In this document: one piece after another, positions 32,001 to 64,000 of the stretch
Position numbering within the stretch: position 1 is the first letter of the stretch
How the letters are laid out: the number at the start of each line of letters is the position of its first letter
DNA from: Amphiscolops sp. MND2022
Taxonomy: Eukaryota
Direction: 5' to 3'
Length of the DNA stretch: 64,000 nucleotides
NCBI GenBank assembly: GCA_964187785.1
Contig: OZ076421.1
Span: forward strand, 27,962,001 to 28,026,000
Notes under the pieces: model-generated
Told to the model about the DNA's origin: nothing
Seen by the model: only the letters and a program-made list of their open reading frames with translations
Databases searched by the model: none
Position numbers and translations under genes: made by a program

Positions 32001-35000
32001 TGATAAAGAATGATTCAAATAGCTCGACGAAGTAATCACTTGGATGAATAAAACAAAAATGATATTACAAATATCAAAGATTTTTAAACCAAAAATTGCG
32101 GATATGAAAAAAACCAAAACTTCAAAATTCGAATAAAGAACCAAACATATAATAATGACACTTTAGCAGGCCAGTGTAAACTGTCTACACCAATGCTCAA
32201 TTACTGTCTTTCGTTGGGGAAAAAGAACTGAAACTTCAAATGCTTGCCTTCCTCCGTAACTTTCAGACCACGGAGTCGTGAGGACAAAGACATTTAAGAC
32301 TTATGTTTACGAGCGTAAGTTAAACAAAACTGAAAAATAAAACCCGGTGGTCATCAATTTTAAATTTTTTCCACTCTTGGAAACTTTTTGACGTTGACAA
32401 CCAACAAAAAGCGGCCTTTCGAATCGACAGACCATTTAATATACGAAGATCAATCAACCCAATCATTTAGTAAGAGCAGCTCGCAACAAACAGAGCATTT
32501 TCTGTCAATGGCGTTTCCTTGATTGATCAAATTTCTACAGTCTTAATGGCCAGTGAAAGTATCTTGCAAAACAGAAAAAAGGTATGACGTGGCCAATTTC
32601 ATAACACAAAATATTAAAAGCCATTTTGACTTGATAATGAATGCTTCAAATAACTAGAACTAACCACTTGGATGAGTAAATACAAAAGTGGAATTACAAA
32701 CATGAACTTATTGGTACCAAAGTTTCAGTGATTGAGAAAAAACAAAACTTCAAAAGTTCAAATAACGAATCTAATATATAACAAAGAAACTCTCATGAAA
32801 GCAGCGTTCATCAGTATATTATAGCTATGTTCAAAACATCTTGATGAGAGCAAAATCTTTTGGAAGCAGAATGCTTCAAAAACTAGGAGTTAACACTTGG
32901 ATGAAATAAATTTTACAAATGGAAAGGAAGCACTCGAGCACCCAAGCATTCTAAACCGATTGAAAGCTGCATTCAAAAAGTGAATTATCAGACACAGTTA
33001 AGAACATGTACAGCAGAGAAACTGTAATGTAAGCAGAAAGCTTCCGTATAACGGCTAAAATCAAAACCCTAACTGATGAAAAGGAATGCTTTAGATAGCT
33101 AGAATTAACCACTAGGGTTAATAATTACAAAACTGAAAGCACAAACAATGATTGTTTTGTGACAGTTTTACAACTACAAGGAAACAATGCTCCTCCAGTA
33201 ATCCGGCAAGATTGGGGCGATGAAGTTTTTTACGTTGGATGATACACCTTTGCAGGATCAGGAACCCTCAACTTTTAACAGATTGACCCCCTTACATAAA
33301 ATGGGTGTCGTGACGCTAGCTGCTGATTCTGTGGCATTCTTTGGAGTACGCAGACAGGATGATGGTGAGTCATTGGGTGAAGTCCTTGTTATCGACAGGA
33401 TCATCTTGTTGATTGTTTGCCCCAAGGGTGCCTTTCTCTCCGATATTGGTCCAACGAGGCCTTGATTTCCTTGAACAGCCAATGTCTAGCCACATCTGCC
33501 ACTGTATCAGTTGGCGTTTCTGTTGATACCTGATGTTGGCGAGCTTTTGGCGAGCCAAGTCAATGGCAGGTAAATCGCTGTGAGACAATCTAAGTCGCTT
33601 GTCTCAAAAGCATCGGGCAACGTTCGTGATAGAGATCTACTGCTGTTCGATTGCCTTTTTCTGTTCTTGTCGTTGGCTAAATTAGCGGGATAACTATTAC
33701 TGGCCCGACATAGATTCTTCGTGCCGAAACAGTTTTCCCGGACGGCATCGGATTGAGTAAATGGTTCGTGCAGCTCTTCTCTGTCACCTGGTTGCGGGCT
33801 TCGATTTTGGAACGAGAGATTACTTCAAGAAATATTTTCTTCCGAATCTATGTAAAATCCCAAGTCTCTTTTTTTAAATCTCGTCAAGGCGTTCTTTGGC
33901 CAAAAGAAGAGCAGGGCAGAACTTTCCTTCGAACGTGAGGTTCAGTGTTTCACCGACGCTCGAATACACCTTCTCTGTCAGTGACACTTTAGGAGACCAG
34001 TATAAACTGTCTGCACCGATGCTCAATTACTGTCTTTCGTTGGGGAAAAAGAACAGAAACTTCAAATGATTGTCTTGCTCCGCAACTTTTAGACTACGGA
34101 GTCGTGAGGGCAAGGACACTTGAGACATATATTTACGAGCGTAAGTTAAACAAAACTGAAAAATAAAACCCGGTGGTCATCAATTTTGAATTTTTCTACT
34201 CTTGAAAACTTTTTGACGTTGACAACCAACAAAAAGCGGCCTTTCGAATCGACAGACCACTTAATATACGAAAATCAAACAACCCAATCATTTAGTAAGA
34301 GCAGCTCGCAACAAACAGCGCAACTCCTCTCAATAGCGTTTCCTTGTTTGATCGAATTTCTATATTCTTAATGGCCAGTGAAAGTATCTTCCAAAACAAA
34401 AAAAAGGTATGACGTGGCCAATTTCATAACACAAAATATTAAAAGCCTGTTTGACTTGATAATGAAATGCTTCAAATAACTAGAACTAACCACTTGGATG
34501 AGTAAATACAAAAGTGGAATTACAAACATGAACTTATTGGTACCAAAGTTTCAGTGATTGAGAAAAAAAACAACACTTCGAAAGTTCAAATAACGAATCT
34601 AATATATAACAAAGAAACTGTTATGAAAGCAGCATTCATTAGTATCTTCGAGCGAAATTCAGAACATGTTGAGAGCAAAGTTTTTTTCGAGAGAAAATGC
34701 TTCAAAAACTAGAAGCTTACAATTGAAAGAAATAAATTGAAAAATGGAAAGAAAGCACTCGAGCACCAAATCATATTAAACCGATTGAACGCCGCATTGA
34801 AAATCTAAAATGTCAGGCATTATCAAGTGTCAGACAAGTTCTTGTTCGTGATTAATAAGTACGGCTGGAAGGGTTTCAATCATCTGCAATCAATTACCTT
34901 TGAAAACGTTTCCCAATTGTATTTCCGTCGGTTTGGGCGGGGTCCCATGCCGCCTAGAAAAAAAAACGTATCAAAGAATTCCTGATTACCTTTGTATCCT

Positions 35001-38000: not shown

Positions 38001-41000
38001 TGATATCAAACCTGGTAAGGTGATTCGTTATTATCACGGAGATGCTGAAGAGACAGCTGAAGCTCGGGTCTTGAGTCGTGCTGGAAAAGCAAATGAAAAA
38101 CACTGTCATTGGTTCAATATTGAGTACTTGAAACCGGAGGATTTATTGGGCACGAGGGGATCGTTTGATGTATCGAAAAGCGTTGAAAATGTGAGTGAAT
38201 CAGAGATTGCGTTGATCACGGATAACACATTTGTCACAAATGAATCGGATGAATTCATTGCTGAGAAGCTGAGTGAGTTGCAGAATTGGCTGCGTTTTGA
38301 TGTGTATGAAGTTGTCGAAAATACCGGTCAGAAGGTTATAACGGCGCGCTGGGTATGTACGTCAAAAGATGGCTTGAAAAAGGCCAGACTGGTGGCTAAA
38401 GGATACCAGGATGCTGATATCGAAACACTGGTATAGGATTCACCAACATGTTCTAGAGACTCAGTACGAACTCTAATGCCAATTCCCAATGCCAACAAGA
38501 TCTGGTTTACTGGAGTTTCGGACATCAAAACTGCATTTCTACAAGATTTTGTCAATCGCGATGTCTTTCTGAAGCCTCCAAAAGAATCCGGAACCGACTA
38601 TATATGGAAATTGAAGAAGGCCGTAGATGGTCTATCAGATGCTCCACGGAAATGGTTTGAGAGATCAAATCCGAACTGATCAAGTCAGGATGTACTCAAA
38701 CCGATGGCGACGAATGCGTTTTTGTACATCATGAAGATCAAGTTTTAAGCGGTTTTTTGACTATTCACGTTGGCGATATTTGGTGGGCTGGTAGTCAGAA
38801 ATTCAAGGAATCTGTTATAAAGCACATTCATAATGTGTTTTTGGTCAAGGAAACCGCTGATCTTCCTTGCAAATACCTTGGAGTAACGATGGGAACACTC
38901 AAGGAAAACTGGACGGTTATCGAATTGCCGGATTACTTGGACTGCTTATCAGAAATACCCGTCGCTGACCTATTATCGCACCCCAAAGACGAACTGGTGC
39001 CGTCTGAGTACATTGGTTATGCTAGGGCTCTCATAGGACAGCTAATGTGGGTAGCTGTTCGAACAAGGCCGCTCCTTGCTTACAGTGTGGCAGAAGTATC
39101 GTTAAAACTATCCTCCCTTACGGTATCTGAGTTTCTAATTCTGAAAGTTGTACGACAGCTCAGAAGTCAGTCTGGATGTAGGCTACGATCTGGGAATTTG
39201 ACTGGTGATTTTGCAAATTGGAAGCTTGTATGCTTTGCGGATGCTTCACTGGGGGATAATGCGGATGGAACAACGCAGGCTGGATATTTAGTGTTTCTTG
39301 TGGATTCTTCACCGAGACAATTTTCGGGCAACACTAGTATCTTGGCGATCCCAGAAATTGAAGCGTGTCGCAAGAAGCACTCTATGCACCAAAACCCTTG
39401 CGGCAACTGAAGCAATTGATGCCGCACTTTCTATTCAAAAGACGACTGAATTCATTTTACAGAGGAAATTATCCATTATTTGTTTATCTGAATCGAAATC
39501 ATTAGTGGCCGCTGCTTTCTCTAACAACAAAATCAATGAAAAAACGCTGCGGGTGGAAATAAGTTATTTGAAGTCCTTGATTACGTCTGGTATTTGATCT
39601 CTGAGGTTCCAACTGATTACCAGTTGGCGGATTGTTTGACAAAACGGGCCACAAAAATGTCAAATTACCTAGAAGTTGTCCTGCAGACCTGCGCATTCAA
39701 AAGTCATTTTCCTGGTATTCTGCGAGATGTATTTGGTGCCTCTGTATAGTATTTCAACATTTAGAAGTGTCTATCTTCTGCGTGAATTAATGTGGTGATG
39801 ACGTAATTCATTCATATTTCACACCTACGACCACGTAGATGATTGCCGTATCACGTGACAGGTATTACATGTACGCCTGCAATTCAATTGCTCTCAATCG
39901 CTACCTCTGCAACTCGCGCCATTATAGATGACCTATCTACTGCCAATTTGTTTGTTCACTATACATGTGTTTGTACATGTGTTGTCTGACGCCATAGATT
40001 CATCTATAGCTAAACAAATGATTTAGAGTGTTATTGTGACGATATATGATGTTTATGTGTTTCTAGATGTAATGTCCGGTGGGGTTTTTAGTATAGTCTG
40101 TTGAAGTATTAGAGTTTTTCAAAAAAGATGTAGTATTTTTTCCCAGAAACATTGAAGCCTCACTCCAGTCCTGCCAACCATTTCACAGCCAGGAACGCTT
40201 AGATCCAAGTCCACCATGCGCCGGACGTGACTGGAGCCGACAACATTGACCTTACGCATTGAGACCTTTCGAATTTTCGATATGAAACCCTTGATAAGAA
40301 TCTCGATAAACCATGGCTATCTTGTCAAGATCTTGCCATGATCTTGACAAGTTTTCCATGTATCATGATTAGCCATGATCTTGACAAGGGTACCTTGGTT
40401 AACCATACCATTATTTAGCAAGATTAACCATTATCTTGGCAAGCGTAGCGTGTCTTCTATCGCTGCGATATCAGTCTAGATATAAAGTGAAGACAATTTG
40501 ATTATACCACTTGTATAATTTGCTTCACTTGGCATATAAAAGTGTTGTTGACTTTTCATACCCCTGTTTTTGAATAAAGTCCCGGATGATGGTTGTTCTG
40601 AATGGAATTTTATTTGAAATCGATGAATCATTCCTTCAAATAATTGACTTCAAATTCTAGTTCAAAATTGTAAAGCATACATGTATCTTGGATGAATATT
40701 TCCCTCGGCATTTTGTAAATACTTTCACATGTGTTTTTTGTTTTCCCGCATCCTGTGTGTTTTTAATTGCTAGACACAAATCTTCCGGAAATAATAATTT
40801 TTCCTTTTTTAATCATTTTTTAGCTGATGAAGCGGCCTGGTCCGCCATTAGAAAAGTAGGGCTATCGGTGAGACACATTTTGGTCCGCCATAGACCCCGG
40901 ACTTACGAACCTTGAACTTTCGAAAAGAAACTACTTTTTTTGGAACTTTGTACCAAAAGTTGTCCTTACAAAAGTAACACTCGATTGTCAAGTAACTAAT

Positions 41001-44000
41001 TACCAAGTAACTAACTTGCAAACCCTTCAACCTGCTAGTCTCAGCTTGATCCACGATTGATCGTCATTCCCCGGTTAGCTCTTTCCATTTTACAACTTAA
41101 AGGCATTTCGTTTTTTCGAAGGTGAAAAAACTGTGGATCCCCCTGATAGTTTGTCCTTTATTATTACTTCCTAAAATTTTGGATACCGATAGTCACATTT
41201 TTACGAAGTCTCTGATCGACCTTCAGCTTACCCCTAGCAAACCGAAAACTTCACTCATGATAATTGTTACCGGTGCAAGTTCACTAAAACGAGCTTTACA
41301 AAACTTGGATTTTGATAACCGAAATCCCCTTGGGAACTCTATCACAGCCATTCCTTCTTTGAGCTTGAACCCCTATGTTCAAAGTGATACGCTCAAATTG
41401 TCTTTACTACTGGATCATGGTATTCCTAAAAATACGAATCAATTAGTTATTTGGCATGACATTCTGAACAACTCCTTGACTCCCCATAAATCAAATAACA
41501 ATACAGCTCTTACCCCTAAAGAATTAGCAACTGAATTATTAAAATATAAATCACGTATAACAGCCTTAGTCTATTGTGAACGTATTGGTGCACCCCATGC
41601 ATTTGATGATCTTCGTGATCAAGATTTCATTGTTATTCGAGTCACAGAAAATCTTCTTTCTCGTAGAAAACAATGATATTCCTCTTTTGAATGAATATTC
41701 CCGACTTCATCCAGTAGCGGATATTGAATTAAAGTCTTTGTTCATTGTTTTGGAGCACCGAAACAATCTTAAAGCTTTATCCCAAAATACAAGAAGTCCC
41801 AGCAAGAAACCTTCTCAAAGGAAAAGAAGATTGAAGAAGCTTTTAGCAGAGTTTGAAGTCAACTTAACGTTAGAAGTTTTTTATTTCATCCTGTGAGTTG
41901 AGTTCGGTGTGGTCACTGGACGATTAGCTCATCGGTGGCCTATCCGACTCGACTTTGAGGATTATTTACTTTGTTTATTGTTCGTGATAGTGTTGTATTG
42001 TAATCTGAAAAATGTCTGTAACTGAAAGTAGTGCTTCCGTACAACCAGCCACTGAAGATAGAAAACTTACTCGCATCCGAGGTGGTCACAAAGGTGCTTT
42101 CACTAGATTGGAACAGAAAGTTGATGAATTTACGGTCACTGCTATTGACTCTTCAACTAAATTGTTTCAAGTTGAAGCTTTGCTGAAGACATTACAAGAT
42201 AGAATTGCAATGATTCACAAGTTTGATGCGGAAATTGAATTATTGATAGAAGATGAAGATGATTTAGCCAATGAACTAGAACAGCAAACGGAGTTTCATG
42301 TTTCTGCTAGTGTTACCATCGCTAGATTGTCTGCATTGATTGAGAATTACAAAAAAGAACGCGATAGACCTCCCCGTGAGTTTTCAACAGACTCTTCTCC
42401 ATCAAGCTCTGCCGCATCGAGTAGATTGAAGTTGCCTAAACTTCAGTTACCAACATTCACTGGATCATACACTGACTGGATGAGTTTCTTTGACCTATTC
42501 AAGGCCTCCGTCGTTTCTAATACGCATCTCTCCAATTCAGAGAAACTGAACTATTTGAAAGCCTGTGTGAAGGGTGAAGCAGCGAGACTCATTAGTTCAA
42601 TCTCGATAACTGACGCAAACTATAATATTGCCTTTGCATTGTTGAAAGATCGATATGAAAATAAAAGGAGCATCATTCAAGCTCATTTGGAAGCAATTTG
42701 GTCGCAGCCGGTTTTGAAAACTGAATCCGCTCTTGGATTGAGGAAACTTCTGGAACTCACCAATGAGCATTTACGAGCACTCGTTGAATTTGGTCAACCA
42801 GTAGAACACTGGAATGCAATCTTAGTTTTTGTTCTGACGGACAAGATGGATCCAGAGTCACGTAAGCAGTGGCAGCTGGATAATCCTGGCACTGACGTTT
42901 TGTCTTGGGAATTATTGTCAAGATTCCTTGACACAAGAAGCCGTGCACTCGAATCGGGTGGCCCAAAGGTCACACCGCAACCAAGTGTGACTCCTCCCTG
43001 TAACCAAGGAAATCAAACTCTGACCAAAAGGGTTCAGAATTATGCTGTTCAAGGCTCATCGTGCGAATCTTGCCAGGAGGATCATCGCCTTTACGTTTGT
43101 TCACAAATCAAAGGAACGTGTCTTGCTGATAGACATAAGTTCATAAAAGACAAAAAGCTCTGTTTCAACTGCTTCTAATCAGGACACCGTCTAATGCGTG
43201 CCGATCTAATTCACTTGTCGTGAGTGCAAAATGAAACATCACACCTTGCTTCATCGACCTCAGAAACAGCTCCCTGATCAGCGCACCTCTACAAAGACTT
43301 ATTCAAGTATGAATTCAACTTCCAACAAAATGGGAGTCTACAAAACAATTCACCACAGGGCACTTTAGTGCTGACAATGAAATTAATACTGTTCTTCTTT
43401 CTACATCTCTTGTAACAGTTCGGAATTCATCGGGAGACGCGATCAAGCTGCGGGCTCTCTTAGATTCCGGTTCACAAGCCAGTTTCGTAACAGAAGATGT
43501 TGCAAAGGCGCTCATGCTGCCAACTCAGCGCAGCCAAATGTTTCTACAATGGGTTCTTCCCATTTCCAAAAAACTCGAGGCTTATTGCCTGTGAAGTTGA
43601 ATGATACCATCGGAGTTAATCTTCATCTCATACCAAAAATCTCCAATACCATTCCTGATAAAGAAATTGACGTTTCGACCATGCGCCATGTGAACAATCT
43701 TAACTTAGCTGATCCCACTTTTAACGTTCCCAATAAGGTTGATCTCTTGCTAGGTGCAGATGTTATAGAAGACATTATGCTTGATAATAAAATAAAGGAC
43801 AACGGCTTGTGCATTCGGGATTCCGTATTCGGTTGGGTTGTGTCTGGTCCTGTGTATTCGTCTGGCAGCAACAACGTTGTGTCCCACATGACTACCACTC
43901 CGAATTGTGACTCTGACCAACTCCTTTCGAAATTTTGGGAAATAGAAAGTGTCCCCGAAACTAGACACTTAACTTTGGATGAGCGTCGTTGTGAAGAGCA

Positions 44001-47000
44001 CTTCGATAGCACTACAAAACGCAATGGAGACGGCTGTTTCGTAGTACAGATGCCATTTAAAGATGGACCCCACAATTTAGGTCTTTCAAAAGCGAACGCA
44101 ATGAAGCGTTTCATTCGTCTCGAATACACTTTGCGCCATAATGTCGACCTTTTTCGAAAGTATTCAGCTTTCATTCAAGAATTCATTGACCTTGGACACT
44201 TGGACACTTGGAGAAGGTCCAACCCGGGGAGATTAATAATTCTCCAAACTTCTACTTGCCTCATCATTGCGTGCTGAAAGAAGATAGTACAACCACCAAG
44301 TTGCGTGTTGTATTTGACGCTAGTGCTAAAACGACAACTGGTTTTTCACTTGATGATTGTTTGCTAGTTGGTCCCAAACTTCAAGATGATTTGTTCAATA
44401 TTCTCGTACGATTCCGTTTCTTCAAGATTGCTTTATCAGCTGATGTAGCGAAGATGTATCGGCAAGTTGAGCTGGATAAAGCCGATCGAGACTTTCATCG
44501 GATCCTCTGGAGATTTACAGCTGATGGTCCGGTTGAAACCTTACGCATGACCCGAGTTACATATGGCGTAGCTTCCTCATCGTATCAATCAATCCGATCT
44601 TTGCGAGAATGTGCCAATTTGTCAGAAGTATCCACTGAGGTTCAAAGAGCTATATTGAGAGATTTTTATGTTGATGACATTCTCACTGGCGCCAATTCGA
44701 TCGATGAAGCTCGAATACTCCAAAAGCAATTAGTAGAAACTCTTAAACGAGGAAGATTCGATCTCCGCAAGTGGACTTCGAACGAATCAAGCATTATCTT
44801 AGACCTTCCGCCCGAGTATCGCGAAGCAAATGATAACTTGGAGTTTTTAGACAAAGACCATACAATAAAAACGCTCGGTATTGTTTGGCAACACAGCGAA
44901 GATCGCTTCGTTTTTAAGGTTTCCCACATCGAAAAGGAAAACTTTAAAGCAAAGGTTTTGACCAAAAGACAAATGCTCAGTGACATTTCAAAGACTTTCG
45001 ACCCATTGGGTTGGTTGTCACCAGTTACCATTTTCTTGAAACAGTTAATGCAAAGGGCTTGGGAAGCAAAAATTTCATGGGATGATCACCTCCCTTCCGA
45101 ACTTGCCGACCGATATTTGAAGTGGAGAACGAAATTGATCTCTTTAAAGGATGTGGAATTGCAACGATTCGTATTACTTGATGGATTTTCGAACAAGATT
45201 GAGTTGCATCTCTTCTGTGATGCATCAGAAAGGGCTTTTGCCGCTTGTATTCATATTGTTGCCACAGATTCCCATGGCAGGCGGAAGTCATCCCTGCTTG
45301 TTGCCAACACCAAGGTAGCCCCCGTGAAAACACAATCTGTTCCGAGATTAGAATTATGTGCTGCTTTGCTAGGCACTAGGTTATATCAATCTGTCATCAA
45401 GTCTATTGGTCAAACGCCAGTTGTTACTGAAGAAACCTTCGCGTGGACTGATTCAACAATAGTTTTGTGTTGGTTGTCAAAAGAACCATCTTGCTGGTCA
45501 ACTTTTATTTCAAACAGAATTAGTGAAAATCAAAGTGAAAACAAATTGAATTGGAATCATGTGTGTTCAGAGGAGAACCCTGCGGATCCTGCATCTCGAG
45601 GAATTAACCCTGACGAAATAAACCAACATGACCTATGGTGGAATGGTCCGAAGTGGTTACTAACAGGTGAATTTCCGAAAACATTGTCAATTGTTGAAAC
45701 ATCTGAAGAGTTGATAAAGTCGACTCTAACAACAGGAATTACCAGTCTTCAAACCTCTGTGGCTCACAGGGATACCAAAAAGGATGTTATTGATTTGTCG
45801 AGGTTTAACTCCTTATACAAAGTCCTCCGAATTCTTGCTTACGCTAGACGTTTTATTGACAAACTGAAGAAGAACGTGGTTGTTTTACCAAATTAGATTA
45901 CTGCCCCAGAGTTAACAGAGTCAATCATAATTTTGATTCGCCAAGAACAAAAGAAACGATATTCGGAAGGAATCCGAACTTCTAGAAATTGCACAACAAG
46001 TTAAGCCCAAGAGTCAAATCTGCAAATTATACCCGTTTCTCGATAATGGCATTCTTTGTGTCGGAGGAAGATTAGTACATGCAAAGTTGCCCGAAGAAAG
46101 CAAGTTTCAAAGACTAATTCCTCAAGACAGTCACCTCGCACGTCTAATTGTATTGAATTCTCACCAGCTGACACTCCATGGTGGGACTAGTCAAACAATT
46201 GCTCACAATAGAACTCGTTTCTGAGTTCCCAGTTGTAGAAATTTGGTTCGAAAAATGATAATGAATTGTGTCAATTGTAATCGCTTCAACTCGAAGCCAG
46301 TTTTCCCCTTGATGGGAGATCTTCCAAAGACAAGAGTTGACCCTCCTATAAAAGCCTTTGAGGACGTGGGCCTAGACTTTGCTGGTCCTTTCCTTTGTAG
46401 GAAATCTCCGAATTCTCTTGAGAAATCCTACCTAGCACTTTTTGTGTGCTTTGCCAGTAAAGCAGTTCACCTGGAACTAGTCTCCGATCTTAGTACAGCA
46501 GCATGTATTGCAGCCATTAGAAGATTCGTTTCTCGCAGAGGTTGTCCTAAAAATCTTCATAGTGACAATGGGAAAAATTTAGTTGGTTCGGAGAAAGAAA
46601 TAGCAGACCTGCAAAAGATATTAAGGAATGAACACTGTGACTCCTTGCAGGCTGAAGCAGCAGGCTTGCACATCAAGTGGTTCTTCATCCCTCCAAGAGC
46701 TCCTCACTTTGGTGGCCTATGGGAATCAGCAATCAAGTGTGCAAAGATACATCTCCGAAAAGTTATGGGAAACAAAGTTCTGTCCTTTGAAGAATTATGT
46801 ACTCTACTCTGTCAAATCGAAATGATTTTGAATTCAAGACCAATCTGCCCATTATCAGAAGATCCAAATGATTAGTTTTTCTTAACTCCTGCTCATTTCT
46901 GCTTGGGTGGAAAGTTGGAGAATCTACCCTTGAGCCAAACTACCAATGATTTGAAAAACCCTGACAGTACACATTCACCCACAAGAAGATGGATACAAAT

Positions 47001-50000
47001 ACAAAAAATGGTCTCTCATTTTTGGAAAAGATGGGTCAAAGAATATGTACTCTCCCTGCAAGAAAGAAATAAATGGAGACTAGAAACTTCTAATTTGAAA
47101 GTTGGTGATATTGTTTTTGTAATTGATGACAATGTTCCCCCACTACAGTGGCCATTGGCTAAAATCCAACATGTCTACACCGGCCCAGACAAGTTTGTGA
47201 GAATCGTAAAAATAAAAACCGCTACAGGAATCTACAATCGACCGGTGCATAAATTGAAGAAAATGTTTGATGCTATTTTCAATGATGATTTCAAATGATT
47301 TTGTTCCCTAACCTTATATTTCTTTTACTGTGCCTTATTTTATTGCGCTTGCGTGTTCAACGCTCTTGTTAATTTCTTCCCTGCGAAATCAAGGCAGGCG
47401 GTGTTATGTTCTGAATGGAATTTTATTTGAAATCGATGAATCATTCCTTCAAATAATTGACTTCAAATTCTAGTTCAAAATTGTAAAGCATACATGTATC
47501 TTGGATGAATATTTCCCTCGGCATTTTGTAAATACTTTCACATGTGTTTTTTGTTTTCCCGCATCCTGTGTGTTTTTAATTGCTAGACACAAATCTTCCG
47601 GAAATAATAATTTTTCCTTTTTTAATCATTTTTTGACTGATGGAGCGGCCTGGTCCGCCATTAGAAAAGTAGGGCTATCGGTGAGACACAATGGTTATTT
47701 CAAACGAATTTTTTTCATGAAATGTACAAATTCTAGTAAATAATCAAGTTGAAAGAGTTTGAAAGCGTTGTTTTGTTTTTTTTTAAAGATTTTTATGGAG
47801 AATATTACAGCAAATTTTGAATATTATCTCTATGTGTTTGGATGGGAGATAATCTCGACATGAGAGCTTTCTGTTTTCAAACTCCAAGAGCGTATTTTGA
47901 TTTTCATTAGTTTTTTGTTCTTTCAAACCAAACCATCAGGCTTCAGAAATAATTCTATGGTTCATCTTAATACATGTAAAGAAACAAATTTTGATTTTGT
48001 TGAACGTATAATTGTTTGATTGCTTGAAAGAAAGAAAACACAAAGCTGTAAATTTGCTTTTTTCTAAATGATTGTTTTGGGAGCAATAGAAGCAACAGAA
48101 GCTAGTCAATCTTGATGAAATTAAAAATAATGAATCGAAAACATGAAAAGTTGAAAATTTCGTCAGTGAAACGTGCTCAGATTTGATTCGTTCACGTTGA
48201 ATGGAATGCATTCAGAAAGCGTATCGGAATTTATCTATAGCAACAATATATTCCCCGGTCTTCAAAATCAGATTGTGATGTCTCGCACATTTTATGGAGA
48301 TGATGAGGGCAGAGCTGCGACTGTGCGCGCTCCACGAAAGGGGGTGTTAAAGCAAGAGCACCATCGCGAGCGAAGAGGAGGAAGGGTTCAAGGTAGCAGA
48401 ATTCCTTCATTTGAGGAATTTTTCCAATGGTCACAGGGGGTCACAATTGAGAAGTAAAGCACAAGACAGTAGATGAGGTATTAGCAGGAAGAACAGAGCC
48501 GACAATTACAGATAAGGTGGAGTTTTGCTTGTCGCAGAGTGTCCTTGTTGAATGCTTGCTTAGTGTGAAGGTTCTGTGGCCTTGAGTCTCTGTGCGCAAT
48601 CGCTTGATGAATTCTAGTACATGTTATAGAATGCGAAGTACACGGACGAAGTTACTGAATTTGTGAATAACTATCAGATCAATTGGATTTGAAGTCACAA
48701 CAAGCGATTGTGTAGTGGCTGCTTTCTTGTTATGTCGAGTAGCCCTTTCTTCGAGAGGCTCTAATGTGGGAACTGAAAGGTTTGGCCACTGGTTTTCTTC
48801 GCGTTTGAGCCAATGTGGACCCTTTGGCCCACCATAGCTTCGATTCCTTTAAATACGCCGTACTTCCTCTTGATCCGAGGTCTTGAGACAAGGTGAGCAC
48901 CTCAAGGCTCCACCCGGGGCATTGAAATGGTTTTCACTGGTGCAACTTTCGACTTAGCTGTGGGCAAAGTGACTGTCACGTTTTTCGTGACGTCGGTCAC
49001 TCGCACATATATGACAGCGGCGTAAGCCTTCTTAGAAGCATCTGAGAATGCATGCAATTGAATGGACTGTACAGCATTTGTGACCAATGCGCGAGGTATT
49101 TCGAGATTTTGAAGGTTCGAAAAGTCTTGATGGAGCATCTGCCAACTCGATTGTATCTCTTCTGAGAGAGGTTCGTCCCACTTGAATCCAAATTTGTTGC
49201 TTAAGGCATTTAAAATTGACTATTGCCGGACAGTCTGCCCATCGGGTCAAAAAGTTTGGATACTGTTGACAGAAAGGTTCTCTTCGTGGTTGTTTTTATA
49301 TCGTCTAGCGTTATCGTTAAGCAAAAACTGTCCTGATTAGGTTTCCAGACGACGCCCGAAGTTTTGATTTTGTAATCATTGGAAAAGAGTTCCAATTCAT
49401 TGGGAGATTCTCGAAGTTTCGTCGAGTTGTGTTATGAGGGTTGCATCATTTGAAGTCCATTTCCTGAGATGGAATCCGTAATTCATCAGTTCACTACAAA
49501 GATGAGTAATCAATTTGACTAGCATCATCGTGTGTGTTGGCACCATCCGGAAAATCATCAACATGAAACGAGTGTCTGATGTGATAACTAATGGGATTGT
49601 CGGAACGTTCAGCCACTTCAACAAGAGCTTGAGTGGACTGAAATGCAGAAGAAGCGATACCATAGGTGACTCTGTTCATGCGAAAATGCTTGATTGTATC
49701 TCTGTCATTTTCTCGCCACAGAATACGATGGAAGTCTCTGTCGTTCTCTGAAAGCTCAATTTGACGATACCTTTTCGCAATGTCCGCCGACAAGGCAATT
49801 GGAAAGAGTCTGAATCTGGTGATAATGGAAAACAGGTCATCTTGAGTTTTCGGGCCGACAAGCAATATATCATTGAGCGAAACTCCGTTTTAGGTCTTTG
49901 CCGAGCCATCAAAGACTACGCGTTATTTTGTTGTAGTTGACTCATCTTTGAAAACACAGTGGTGAGGAAGATATTACACCTGATCAACTGGTTTCTGAAT

Positions 50001-58994: not shown

Positions 58995-61900
58995 TGTATT
59001 ACCAACATGAGGCGACATTTGTTATCAAGCGACATTTGTTATTATTTGGTAGAAAGTGACATTTGTTATCAGATTGAAAAAGCGACATTTATCAAATCTT
59101 AAAAGGCGACATTTGTCAACTAAATTAGGTTGATAACTAGAAATGAGGCTTTACTAATTAATCCAACAAGTATCTGACAACTTTTTTTATAAATTGACTC
59201 AGCTATCATTCCGTTTGCATTATACATACAATGAATTGACTTCAGCAACCATTCCGTTTGCATTATACATACAATTTGGTACTATCAAACATGACTCTTT
59301 CCTTTTCTACTTTGACTTTATTTTGATTTCATTGACAAATATTATTGTTAATGCATGAATACTTTAAACTACCCGTGAATCATACTTTTTGTTTTGAATT
59401 GAATTTGACTGATCATCAAATTGCTTTCACCGCAATTCCCAACTTCAAAAAGACAATCAAAGTGATTGTATAAACATATTTTGGTGCCGCGCAATTTTCG
59501 AACCGAGGATCACCCACCCTCCATCGCCGAGGAAGACGTCTCCCCTGTCGAGACACCAAATACTTCTCATCTAAGTTTTCCTTCTTACTATGATTCAAGT
59601 TGTCGGAGCGAGTTCTCTGAAAAGACTTTTTGAATTTTGTCAGTCCAATAAAGTCGACTTGAGAAAGCACATCACTGCAATTTCCGGATTGTCTGTAAAC
59701 CCTTACGCAAAAAGCAATCTGAAAAACATGAAATTTCAGTCCACGCAAGGATACTCACACCACAAAAAACTTCTGATTTGGCACGATATTATTAATAACT
59801 CGCTGAACGCTCACAGAAGCAATAATTTTCGAGCGAACACTGTTTCTAATCTCTGTACAACTCTCTTACAATTGAAAGATCATATAACAGCAATTGTCTA
59901 CTGTCAGCGAGGGGGATTGCCTAATATTTACGAGGAACTTACAAATACTGGAATTTTAGTTTTGCACGTACATAAACATCTCTTATCTCCACGGAAAAAG
60001 AAAAATTGTTCAGTACTGAAGGAATTTGCAAGCCTTCATCCTAGTCGAAGCGTTGAGTTGAACATTCTCATAACACTCTGGCGTTATCAATATCAATTAT
60101 CAGCTCTTTTGAAAACTAGAAGATCTCAAAAGAAAATACCTTCAAAGAAAAATTGCAGAAGTCAGCAAAAGAAAATATATGCAGTTCTCTGACAAGTGAC
60201 AATTGTTTTCCTTTGTGATTGTCTTTCATCTCCTGAGCGTTCTAATGTTCGGAGTTGTTGGGCATATCACATTTACATATATTTGTCTCCATCTTTCTCA
60301 ATGTCTATGAATGTTGATAGTTTGAAGCGCTCGAGGAGGGCTGGTTTTCGTGGCATCTGCACGAAGTATAAGAATGAAGCTGAAAAACTCCTGAGCCAAA
60401 ATGTATTGACGTCTGATCAATTAGTCCGACTTGAACAACTAGCCACACTCCTCGAAAGTAAATTGAATCAGATTACCCCACTTGACCTTCAAATACAAGG
60501 ACACACGGAAATAAACGAGTTAGAAGAAACAATAACGGAAGCTAGCGATGCCAATGACATTTTTTTCTAAACATTGATACTACCCGTCGACGCGTTCGTT
60601 CTGAAAACGCATATGAAAATGTTGGTGGAGGAGAGCCGTCTGCCAGTTCTAGTGGCTCAATGGCAATATCACGTCAAGTAGCCAGTGCCAAATTACCAAA
60701 GTTAAACTTGCCCACTTTCAAGGGTGACTATGAGAACTGGCTTTCGTTTCATGACATGTTCAAAAGCTCTGTTCACGATAACCGCTCGTTAACGGACTCG
60801 CAGCGTCTTCAGTATTTGAAAGCTTCTCTGCAAGGTGATGCAGTCAAACTATCGACCTCTCTTGCAATAACTGATGCTAATTTTTGAACTGCTCTGCAAA
60901 CACTTGAAGAACGCTATGCGAATCCTCGGAGGATAGCCCGAATGCATTTGACGAGTATTTTCGAATATCCGAATGTGAAGTCGGAGAGCTCAAAAGATCT
61001 GCGAAAGTTAATAGAGACAACTGAGCAACATCGCCTTGGTCTGGAGAATCTTGGCCAACCTGTTAATCAATTTGACCTTGTCTTCGTGTATATTGTAAGC
61101 AACAAATTGGACTCTGAAACCAGGAAACAATGGGAATTATCCACTCCTGGCACTGACTTCCAGACTTACCAGCAACTTAAAACCTTCGTTGAGAGCAGGT
61201 GTCAAGCACTTGAAACGGCGGTTGTTAATGTTACTAAACATAAGGACTTCGAAGTAAAGGTTAATCAACGGGATCCGAGATCTTTTACACAGTCTTATGC
61301 TACTCATTGGAAGAAGGATTTATGTTTAGCATTTGATGCCAACGATCACAAGCTATATGGTTTACCAAAGTTTGAAAAAATGTCCCGACAAGAAAAGGTG
61401 AGTTTCATAAAACGAAATAACTTATGTTTCAATTGTTTGCGGGTGGAACATCGACTCGATGCATGTCCCAGTCAGTCAAGCTGCCGTGAGTGCCAAAAAA
61501 GGCATCATACCTTATTGCATCCTCAACTGCGATTGAATCCTAGAGGAAATGAAGTGAACTGTCACTCAGACAAGGCAGCCATGCATTCAAATGTAACAGA
61601 TACACAAACTGTCCTTCCCACAGCTCTTATTCCTGTTCAAGGCAAACTTGGAATCACTCATCTTCGAGCCTTACTAGATTCTGGCTCGCAGACGTCTTTC
61701 ATAACTGAAAGTGCTCATCAATTACTGCAGTTGCCGAAGCAATCATCAAATCTTCTTGTTAATGACCTTGGTGGTCATTCAACAAGCCTCTCTAGGGCGT
61801 TCAGTGACTTCATGATCTTACCCAAACAATTCGACCCCATAAATGTTAAAGGCTTCATACTACCAAAACTTACTCAGAAACTGCCCAGTAGAAAGGTTCA

Positions 61901-64000
61901 GAACTTCAACTGGAGCAAACTTAAAAACATGCAACTGGCCGACCCTTACTTCTCTGAACCCGCACCAGTCGATTTGATCCTAGGAGCAGATGTTTTGGAA
62001 GAACTACTGCTATCTAGCAAAATCAAACTTGGTACAGGTTTGGCTCTCACAGAAACTAAACTTGGATGGGTTGTAAGGGGCGCAGTGCAGGCAAAACATA
62101 GTATTAGCATACAAAGCCTCCACACACTGGACTCCCAACTCCAAAACTTCTGGCGACTCGAAGAAGTCCCTGATATAGCTAATCAGACTGAAGAGGAAAT
62201 GGAATGCGAGAACTTTTTTGACCAAACTACATACCGCGATGAAACTGGTCGCTTCGCTGTAAAACTACCTTTCAAACAGTCCATCGGTTTTCTCGGAAAT
62301 TTTTTCCAAAGTGCTCTTCGTCGCTTTTATGCCTTGGAACTCAAACTAAACATGAATCCGGATCTGAAACAGAGTTACTCTGCTTTTATTAAGGAGTTTC
62401 TTTCACCAGGACATATGGAGGTTATTCCGGACAAGGAAATTGCTATTAGCAACAGAGATTCCTATTGTTTGCCACATCACTGCGTGTTGTCTTTGATGCA
62501 TCTGCTAAAACCTCTTCTGGTGTCTCTTTGAATAAACGACTAATGATCGGGCCAAAGCTACAAAGTGACCTTTTCCATATTGTTTTGAGATTGCGCTTAC
62601 ACGCTGTTGCGTTTAGCGCCGATATAGCGAAAATGTACCGACAAGTGGCTCTTGACAAATCAGACCGGGATTACCACAGACTGTTATGGCGTGAAGAGAC
62701 CAATGAACCGGTGCAGCACTTGCGCATGACTCGAGTCACTGATGGGGTTGCGTCCTCTTCTCATCATTCGATCAAATGTCTCATAGTTCTAGCTAAAACA
62801 GCTTCGCCCGAAGTTCGGAGAATCATAGAAAGAGACATGTATGTGGATGATCTACTGTCAGGGGCAGATTCGATTGAAAGGGCACTCGTAATACATACCG
62901 AGTTGATCGAATTGTTGCAATCCGCAGGCTTCCAGTTGCGAAAGTGGACTTCAAATAACTTAGACCTCATTAAAGCACTTCCCCCAGACTACCGTGAAAG
63001 TAAAGACGAATTAGTCTTTGCGGCCGAATCATATCAAATCAAAGCTTTGGGCATCTCGTGGCAACCTGTCCCTGATACCTTTCACTTCAAAATTGATATC
63101 AACAAAACATCCGAGGCAAAAACGAAACGCAAGTTCTGTCAGAAATAACTCGGTTATTTGACCCCCTTGGTTGGCTTTCTCCTATTGTTGTTAAATCCAA
63201 GTGTTTCGTTCAAGAAATGTGGAAACGTCATTTAACGTGGGACAAAAAATTTCCCGACACTCTCCTAGTTCAATGGGAACTTCTACAAAAGGATTTGCGA
63301 ACGCTTACGACCTGCCGTATACCGCGAAGACTGGTAACTAAGAATGAACTGGGGCATTCTTTGGAGCTTCATGTCTTCTGTGACGCCTCTGAAAATGCCT
63401 ACGCAGCTGCAGTCTACAGTCGTGTCTTAGTTGACAATGTTTTCCAAACAGCTCTGCTCGCTTCCAAAAGTAGGGTAGCACCGCTGAAACCTTTAACTGT
63501 TCCCCGTCTAGAGCTTTGTGGGGCTCTTTTGGGAGCTGAACTTATCACTTCAGATCAGTGCGCTTTTGCTGACATGCCATATGAAATTTCAATATTCGCT
63601 TGGACTGATTCCACAGTCTTCCTATCTTGGATCTCGCAACCACCGAATACTTGGAAAACATTTGTTCGCAATCGAGTTGCAAAAATAGAAACATTAGTTC
63701 CCAGTGACCGCTGGGGACATGTCAAGGGTGAAAATAACCCTGCCGATTTGCCATCAAGAGGCGTTACTGCTGATGTTCTCTTGGACTCTTCCTTGTGGTG
63801 GAAGGGACCTGAATGGCTGAGAGACGGGTCCTGTGATTTGAATGCACACATTGGCCTTCAATGCTTTCCAAAGGCCCAAAAGATCGAAGAACATCGAACG
63901 CCTGTACTTTCGTTACCCTTAGCTGCGACTGTGCAAAATTCTTCAGTTATTGAAATAATAAATCATTCTCGTTTCCGTAGCTCTAAAAAATTGGTACGCG
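58995..64000 (+). mobile_element. BEL/Pao LTR retrotransposon (disabled gag-pol, runs off window end) with extra 5' ORF
   Basis: Putative LTR ~58995-59476 (TG..CA; start uncertain); PBS TGGTGCCGCG (59482); gag from 60301 (KLPKLNLPTFKGD, CFNCLRVEHRLDAC); protease ALLDSGSQTSF; RT MYVDD (~62838); RNase H FCDASENAY (~63377). Confidence 0.9.
59590..60192 (+). CDS. Intact 200-aa extra ORF ('ORF0') upstream of BEL/Pao gag, SGNH-hydrolase-like motif layout
   Basis: MIQVVGASSLKR..ITAISGLSVNPY..LLIWHDIINNSL..ITAIVYCQRGGLP..LLSPRK..EFASLHP..basic tail; uninterrupted ATG to TGA; homologous to 41257-41896. Confidence 0.75.
   Translation: MIQVVGASSLKRLFEFCQSNKVDLRKHITAISGLSVNPYAKSNLKNMKFQSTQGYSHHKKLLIWHDIINNSLNAHRSNNFRANTVSNLCTTLLQLKDHITAIVYCQRGGLPNIYEELTNTGILVLHVHKHLLSPRKKKNCSVLKEFASLHPSRSVELNILITLWRYQYQLSALLKTRRSQKKIPSKKNCRSQQKKIYAVL

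Follow-up and report, generated by a model that had tools for sequence, protein, structure and literature searches.

An extra gene ahead of gag in a BEL element

The 3' end of the window, by which we mean the whole 64,000-nucleotide stretch of Amphiscolops DNA analysed here, carries a BEL retrotransposon with an extra ORF ahead of gag. Such a gene raises the questions of what protein it encodes, how widely it is carried, how it is translated and what it could do for a transposon.

The element is preceded by a 5-bp target-site duplication (59272..59276), the second copy of which stands behind the 3' LTR, past the end of the window, and begins with a 200-bp 5' LTR (59277..59476) whose partner, ~97 % identical, lies outside the window. 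A PBS-like site with TGG as its first letters (59482..59499) was placed by its position relative to the LTR. The ORF, which we call ORF0, encodes 200 aa (59590..60192) and is followed by a 108-nt spacer from its stop to the gag start (60193..60300) and by a BEL gag-pol that is split over several frames and continues past the window (60301..64000). All features of this element and of the second one described below are on the + strand. Matches to Pao peptidase, DUF1759 and RT domains identify the focal element as BEL, and the host elements have the LTRs, the DUF1759 gag and the PR-RT-RH(Pao A17)-IN order of BEL/Pao. Our ORF check recovered the intact 200-aa ORF that a preliminary description of this DNA had placed between the PBS and gag. 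Because the focal gag-pol is in pieces, an intact ORF0 in the window copy does not by itself show that this copy is under selection.

A second BEL element in the window (40594-47690) has Pao peptidase, DUF1759 and rve domains, a 5' LTR (40594..40877) and a 3' LTR (47407..47690) that are 99 % identical, and a broken gag-pol (42012..47298). The preliminary description reported a homologue of ORF0 in the same slot of this element. The homologue is indeed present and starts at 41257 (41257..41896), but a frameshift near 41673 interrupts it, which had gone unstated. The two elements have no LTR repeat family in common and their PBS-like sites differ, in agreement with that description, and the sequence blocks listed there are present. 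An intact sister copy of the second-element ORF0 shares 41 % identity with the focal protein over 192 aa (E 3e-47). Elsewhere in the window we noted a degenerate direct repeat with a period of ~1,825 bp (32156-34819).

ORF0 is predicted to have an SGNH fold that lacks the block V Asp

The AlphaFold model of the ORF0 protein, made with a 29-row alignment, has a pLDDT of 86 and a pTM of 0.79. Foldseek found seven PDB matches at E<=0.001 (best E 1e-4), each of them a chain of a GDSL lipase or a PAF acetylhydrolase, and the best match in a VIA structure search is a GDSL lipase (Z 11.6, rmsd 3.1, 145 aligned). SGNH proteins fill the VIA match list, the OSK domain of Oskar among them (5a4a, Z 8.4), and the ZfL2-1 esterase is absent among the best 50 VIA matches listed. 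A flavodoxin-like alpha/beta SGNH fold, as first suggested from the sequence motifs, is thereby predicted for ORF0 by the model and by both structure searches.

Searches with the ORF0 sequence against Pfam, NCBIfam and the PDB matched no family, and 29 members of the ORF0 family gave no match to PF13472. The ORF0 profile aligned to canonical GDSL domains of the same genome with a probability of <=3 %, which is not significant and comes from thin templates; its alignment to a second SGNH family described below was not significant either. The best ESM Atlas score was 0.88, with two clusters carrying GDSL on 21-23 % of their members, which we take as leads only, and none of 46 pattern matches in IMG/VR is a relative of ORF0.

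We examined residue conservation across 148 ORF0 proteins with a median identity of 31 %. Ser8 (codon 59611..59613) is kept in 92 % of 137 aligned rows and His150 (codon 60037..60039) in 93 % of 142 rows, including all 88 intact ORFs of this genome. In the 148-protein alignment G33 (88 %), N69 (83 %) and N70 (92 %) are kept at places fitting blocks II/III, and W64, H65, D66, H75, Y104, R107 and E156 are likewise kept at 85-96 %. From motif position and secondary-structure order we infer that Ser8 belongs to block I, where G-A-S replaces G-D-S, tentatively G33 and N69/N70 to blocks II and III, and His150 to block V; in the model His150 lies in a loop ahead of helix 153-165, as would fit this block. 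Given the fold, Ser8 is the likely nucleophile and His150 the likely catalytic base. Position 147, three residues before His150 and the place of the block V Asp, is variable and mostly K/R/S, a departure from the canonical D-x-x-H. The combination first noticed in the window, Ser, Asn and His kept with the block V Asp absent, is borne out by the alignment, in which the Gly is kept as well.

One explanation for the missing Asp is that ORF0 is a non-catalytic SGNH fold which binds RNA or membranes and coats or routes its own RNA, much as the OSK domain does. Like ORF0, OSK has an SGNH fold without the full triad; it binds RNA and is not an enzyme, according to the accessible part of the source (PDB 5a4a, PMC10792757). 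ORF0 proteins have a median pI of 10.3 (~10.3 for the focal protein) and a tail rich in K/R, OSK is among the fold matches, and we also count for this reading that liposome binding by the ZfL2-1 esterase is independent of its active site (PMC3905857, accessible text). However, OSK is a host domain without the catalytic set (PMC10792757, same portion), whereas ORF0 keeps Ser, Gly, Asn and His. Ser8 and His150 are among its best-kept residues, of which a dead enzyme would need neither, and a canonical DxxH family occupies the same slot in other BEL families. We consider an OSK-like role unlikely, and because Ser8 and His150 are so well conserved among proteins only ~31 % identical, the inactive accessory protein that the preliminary description had left as an option is the less likely of its two proposals.

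The family in question is a second free-standing SGNH family (GGN, DxxH) with 925 candidates, found between the PBS and gag of other BEL families. A canonical DxxH family in this position suggests that the slot is one for hydrolase activity. In some SGNH enzymes, moreover, a main-chain oxygen replaces the Asp (PMC10792757, in the portion available). Catalysis by Ser8 and His150 without the Asp is supported by their conservation, by this precedent and by the replacement of ORF0 with a canonical SGNH family, and on balance we favour it. A single-sequence structure model of the second family had a pLDDT of 40 and was set aside. Some matches to this family are paired ~8 kb apart, as if inside LTRs.

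ORF0 is carried by five transposon superfamilies

A search of the same genome gave 2,903 ORF0 candidate sites, 150 of which were scored. We chose 100 loci by hand for variety, so that the following proportions are not genome frequencies: 63 lie ahead of a BEL gag, 27 ahead of LINE ORF1 and APE-RT ORF2, 6 ahead of a Gypsy gag-pol, 2 lie 3' of a Copia pol and 2 ahead of the Transposase_21 gene of a CACTA-like DNA transposon. In 88 of the 100, ORF0 is an intact, separate ORF that has a start and a stop codon of its own, and at 70 % identity these 88 form 32 families, none of which mixes element types. A free-standing ORF between PBS and gag is seen in many BEL families, but ORF0 does not mark a single BEL subfamily as had been proposed, since 37 of these hand-picked loci belong to LINE, Gypsy, Copia or DNA transposons and BEL monophyly is rejected (see below). 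ORF0 is an accessory gene common to BEL, Gypsy, LINE, Copia and a CACTA-like DNA transposon in this genome.

The LINE carriers hold ORF0 as a separate gene ahead of a complete ORF1, which in several families is of the PHD or CCHC type. The Copia carrier is a 5.4-kb element, found in five regions (L163-L167), with 88-bp LTRs enclosing the 3' ORF0, a variant that has lost the WHD motif. DNA-transposon carriers are few. Three diverged CACTA-like subfamilies have ORF0 and the same accessory frames in common, and their two intact ORF0 copies are 60 % identical in protein with almost no DNA match over ORF0. Long internal tandem repeats occur in the CACTA-like element (L126:7364-7774, L127:7189-7911, L170), and the frame ahead of its Transposase_21 gene, which has no Pfam match, resembles by eye what we take to be the end of a SET domain. 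None of 7,997 candidates is a longer relative in which ORF0 is fused into a larger protein, which is weak evidence for a free-standing gene.

Beyond this genome, other assemblies yielded 960 ORF0-family representatives at E<=0.001, of which three lack a close counterpart in the genome analysed (best 41-48 %). The ORF0 profile matched 18 of 19 metagenome loci, and the non-matching one (L242) was dropped. Four metagenome loci have tblastn matches to LINE ORF1/ORF2 downstream; by eye, four more look LINE-like downstream and one resembles a BEL gag.

ORF0 is probably exchanged between elements and is under purifying selection

In a tree of 56 ORF0 rows the BEL and LINE copies are interleaved, and the copies from DNA transposons form the sister group of one LINE lineage (support 100/95). 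A single clade of BEL copies is rejected (AU p 1.9e-5), and the starred branches force at least four changes for BEL and at least five for LINE. The RT tree of BEL, in which family L089 is missing for want of a usable RT piece, gives the same answer to the question of one subfamily: ORF0 presence is patchy, close BEL relatives are without the gene, and so is the nearest relative of the focal family. Exchange of ORF0 as a cassette among elements, by recombination or template switching, is likely. We also sampled BEL from the gag side by taking every seventh gag match. Among the resulting 20 rows (the extra picks L161 and L162 are not counted), the ORF0 family is present in 4, the second SGNH family in 3 and neither in 13, 11 of which represent one successful BEL family.

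Of 22 multi-copy ORF0 families, 11 have a most diverged pair with dS>0.1, and in these pairs dN/dS is 0.04-0.36, four of the 11 having a dS >1.7, near saturation. The protein-level selection suspected from the two window copies is borne out, and ORF0 is under purifying selection between diverged lineages. Young copies are near neutral (pooled dN/dS 0.2-1.2, focal family 0.60).

This decay of young copies, together with the patchy RT-tree distribution and the 13 of 20 gag-centred rows without such a gene, would be expected if ORF0 were a selfish passenger or a neutrally captured host gene of no benefit to its carrier. The low dN/dS between active lineages largely refutes such a reading. The length and position of ORF0 are fixed, its start contexts are tuned, and a host-gene context was found for none of the loci examined, all of which leaves a passenger very improbable.

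A weak start and an AUG-free body point to leaky scanning

In the 32 families, ATG is the most depleted of the 64 triplets in ORF0 (73 vs 254 expected). The AUG counts that follow are for the 29 retroelement families, three families of then-unclear context having been left out. Only 2 internal in-frame ATGs are present in ORF0, against 104 in downstream ORF controls of equal length. Frame +2 holds 3, compared with 16-34 by shuffling, and frame +1 shows a modest deficit (52 vs 69-85 by shuffling), the ORFs opened by these frame +1 ATGs having a median of 3 codons vs 9. The start contexts differ as well: a purine is present at -3 in 4 of 29 ORF0 starts but in 21 of 28 downstream gag/ORF1 starts (p 3.5e-6), the downstream start being chosen by rule in the best member of each family and probably wrong in a few families.

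Library relatives of ORF0 have 0.2 % internal Met, and members of the second SGNH family (L147, L150, L151, L244-L267) likewise have a single Met. In five of seven copies of the focal family the 711 nt up to gag are free of ATG in every frame, and the window copy has three. The Copia family, where ORF0 is the last ORF, has a strong ORF0 start, with a purine at -3 and an acceptor-like AG just upstream. Among 18 homologues found in other assemblies, five contain 4-12 internal ATGs and are not AUG-poor.

An AUG desert with a weak ORF0 start, placed before a strong gag/ORF1 start, points to leaky scanning. As judged from these sequence features, one bicistronic RNA probably yields both proteins by leaky scanning. 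Polycistronic RNAs read in this way are used by plant pararetroviruses, of which rice tungro bacilliform virus is an example. As in the ORF0 elements, a weak upstream start and an AUG-poor ORF come before the main polyprotein there, but the system is a plant virus and has no SGNH gene. A weak start and an AUG-free body suggest a simple route by which a 5' gene could be added to an element. We found no report of the ORF0 scanning signature in the papers searched.

LINE copies carry a spliced leader ahead of ORF0

The 5' end of many LINE copies (noted in L048-L070, L091, L125-L142 and L175-L182, also L079) carries a leader that is identical to the published spliced leader of the acoel Symsagittifera roscoffensis (PMC9911081, accessible part), which by itself makes an acoel host likely. 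It stands ahead of ORF0 in 27 of 35 LINE loci (<=2 mismatches) and at the 5' end of none of 63 BEL, 6 Gypsy or, overall, 73 non-LINE loci. A LINE copy preserves the sequence of its RNA in DNA form, and the RNA that was mobilised therefore likely read leader-ORF0-ORF1-ORF2.

Gag or ORF1 could instead be translated from a separate RNA, formed by a second trans-splice or a cis-splice after ORF0, and no scanning would then be needed. Spliced-leader genes form arrays in the genome (1,270 matches), the acoel in which the same leader was described trans-splices 30 % of its genes (PMC9911081, same part of the source), and several families have pyrimidine-rich tracts ending in AG 3' of ORF0. Such splicing would leave the loss of internal Met and the weak ORF0 start unexplained. 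In the one LINE family covered by this test, with 18 close ORF1 matches, the leader precedes ORF0 in 13 and lies between ORF0 and ORF1 in none. We judge a separate RNA distinctly unlikely.

Three further observations concern the leader. Full-length sister copies of a LINE have it joined at different acceptor-like AG sites (L058 vs L125), and an inverted leader copy follows the leader in some LINE copies; together with the leader at the LINE 5' ends, this suggests that LINEs of this genome pass through trans-splicing in their life cycle. A tandem array of spliced-leader gene-like units, many 904 bp apart, lies at G000:C1:16229106-16424069 (L183-L194).

Possible functions of ORF0

The account that we favour, if only slightly, is that ORF0 is a Ser-His acyl hydrolase made from a leaky first ORF and acting for its own RNA at a membrane-associated step. 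The product would be translated from the first, weak AUG of the element RNA, with most ribosomes scanning past it to gag or ORF1. Ser8 and His150 would catalyse acyl hydrolysis without the usual Asp, the basic protein would stay with the RNA that encoded it, and by deacylating a lipid or lipid-linked target it would ease a membrane-associated step of the element ribonucleoprotein. This last part, an own-RNA-bound deacylation by analogy with the role proposed for the ZfL2-1 esterase, is tentative and somewhat more doubtful than the rest. DNA-transposon carriers, having no retro-RNP, fit a membrane step poorly, and the invariant W64, H65, D66, H75 and R107 are more than a plain acyl hydrolase would account for.

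Alternatively ORF0 may be a counter-silencing or counter-defence enzyme that acts on a host factor or small molecule instead of on membranes and helps any transposon carrying it. Its carriers are LTR, non-LTR and DNA transposons, for all of which host silencing is a common problem, and the DNA-transposon pair keeps its protein identity despite almost no DNA match. The conserved H65-D66-H75-R107 cluster could bind metal or phosphate, and the basic tail might act as a nuclear signal. A diffusible suppressor, however, would also aid non-carriers, so that selection on each carrier would be weaker; sequence searches gave no homology to a known suppressor, and the small number of DNA-transposon carriers also speaks against it. 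We hold a counter-defence role to be rather unlikely. Just as doubtful is its widest form, a cassette traded as a leaky first ORF by every major acoel transposon class, whose rebuilt Ser-His and His-Asp-His-Arg site attacks a host defence or signalling substrate. If true, it would amount to a general transposon counter-defence gene pool, like the anti-defence genes exchanged by phages and plasmids.

The range of options is smaller for a function from which LTR, non-LTR and DNA transposons all profit. Within one genome, dozens of lineages from five superfamilies maintain this single small, stand-alone family under selection. Sister families with and without ORF0 offer natural comparisons, as does the second SGNH family that occupies its slot, and with 200 aa and a single domain the ORF0 protein lends itself to expression and assay.

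ORF0 compared with other SGNH genes of transposons

SGNH genes in transposons, and their sharing between retroelement classes, are already known. They recur in LINE ORF1p, Vesta, Penelope, Ngaro and Helitron elements. The comparisons below follow the accessible parts of the papers cited.

The closest parallel is the GDSL/SGNH ORF3 of the bdelloid LTR retrotransposon Vesta, like ORF0 a free-standing SGNH gene in an LTR element (PMC5408684). It is common to Athena Penelope-like elements, a sharing between classes like that of ORF0, for which template switching was proposed. Vesta ORF3 lies 3' of pol with its catalytic residues intact, whereas ORF0 is mostly the first ORF and lacks the Asp. Its authors saw no clear departure from neutrality, in contrast to the low dN/dS of ORF0, and unlike the Vesta/Athena gene ORF0 reaches five superfamilies including a DNA transposon (PMC5408684 throughout). 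The ORF1p esterase of CR1/L2, RTEX and Penelope elements resembles ORF0 in placing an SGNH fold ahead of the RT gene, and the ZfL2-1 esterase also in its basic surface and proposed membrane role; it forms part of ORF1p and has a complete Asp-His-Ser triad, whereas ORF0 is a separate gene before a complete ORF1 (PMC3905857). SGNH genes of unproven function are present in another transposon order, as the Ngaro-like SGNH ORF (PMC9210276), and in a DNA transposon, as texim in fish Helitrons (PMC4021074). These are separate captures in other animals, and the accessible text of the two papers reports no first-ORF position or AUG depletion.

We found no report of the ORF0 family or of a 5' SGNH ORF in BEL/Pao in the papers searched. 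The Asp-less, first-position form of SGNH gene in five superfamilies likewise had no match there. Canonical domains of this class also occur in transposons of the same genome: a GDSL domain behind the integrase, as the last part of a Gypsy pol (L071-L078, L082), and an SGNH esterase domain within a LINE ORF1, in the known CR1/L2-like arrangement (L079, L080).
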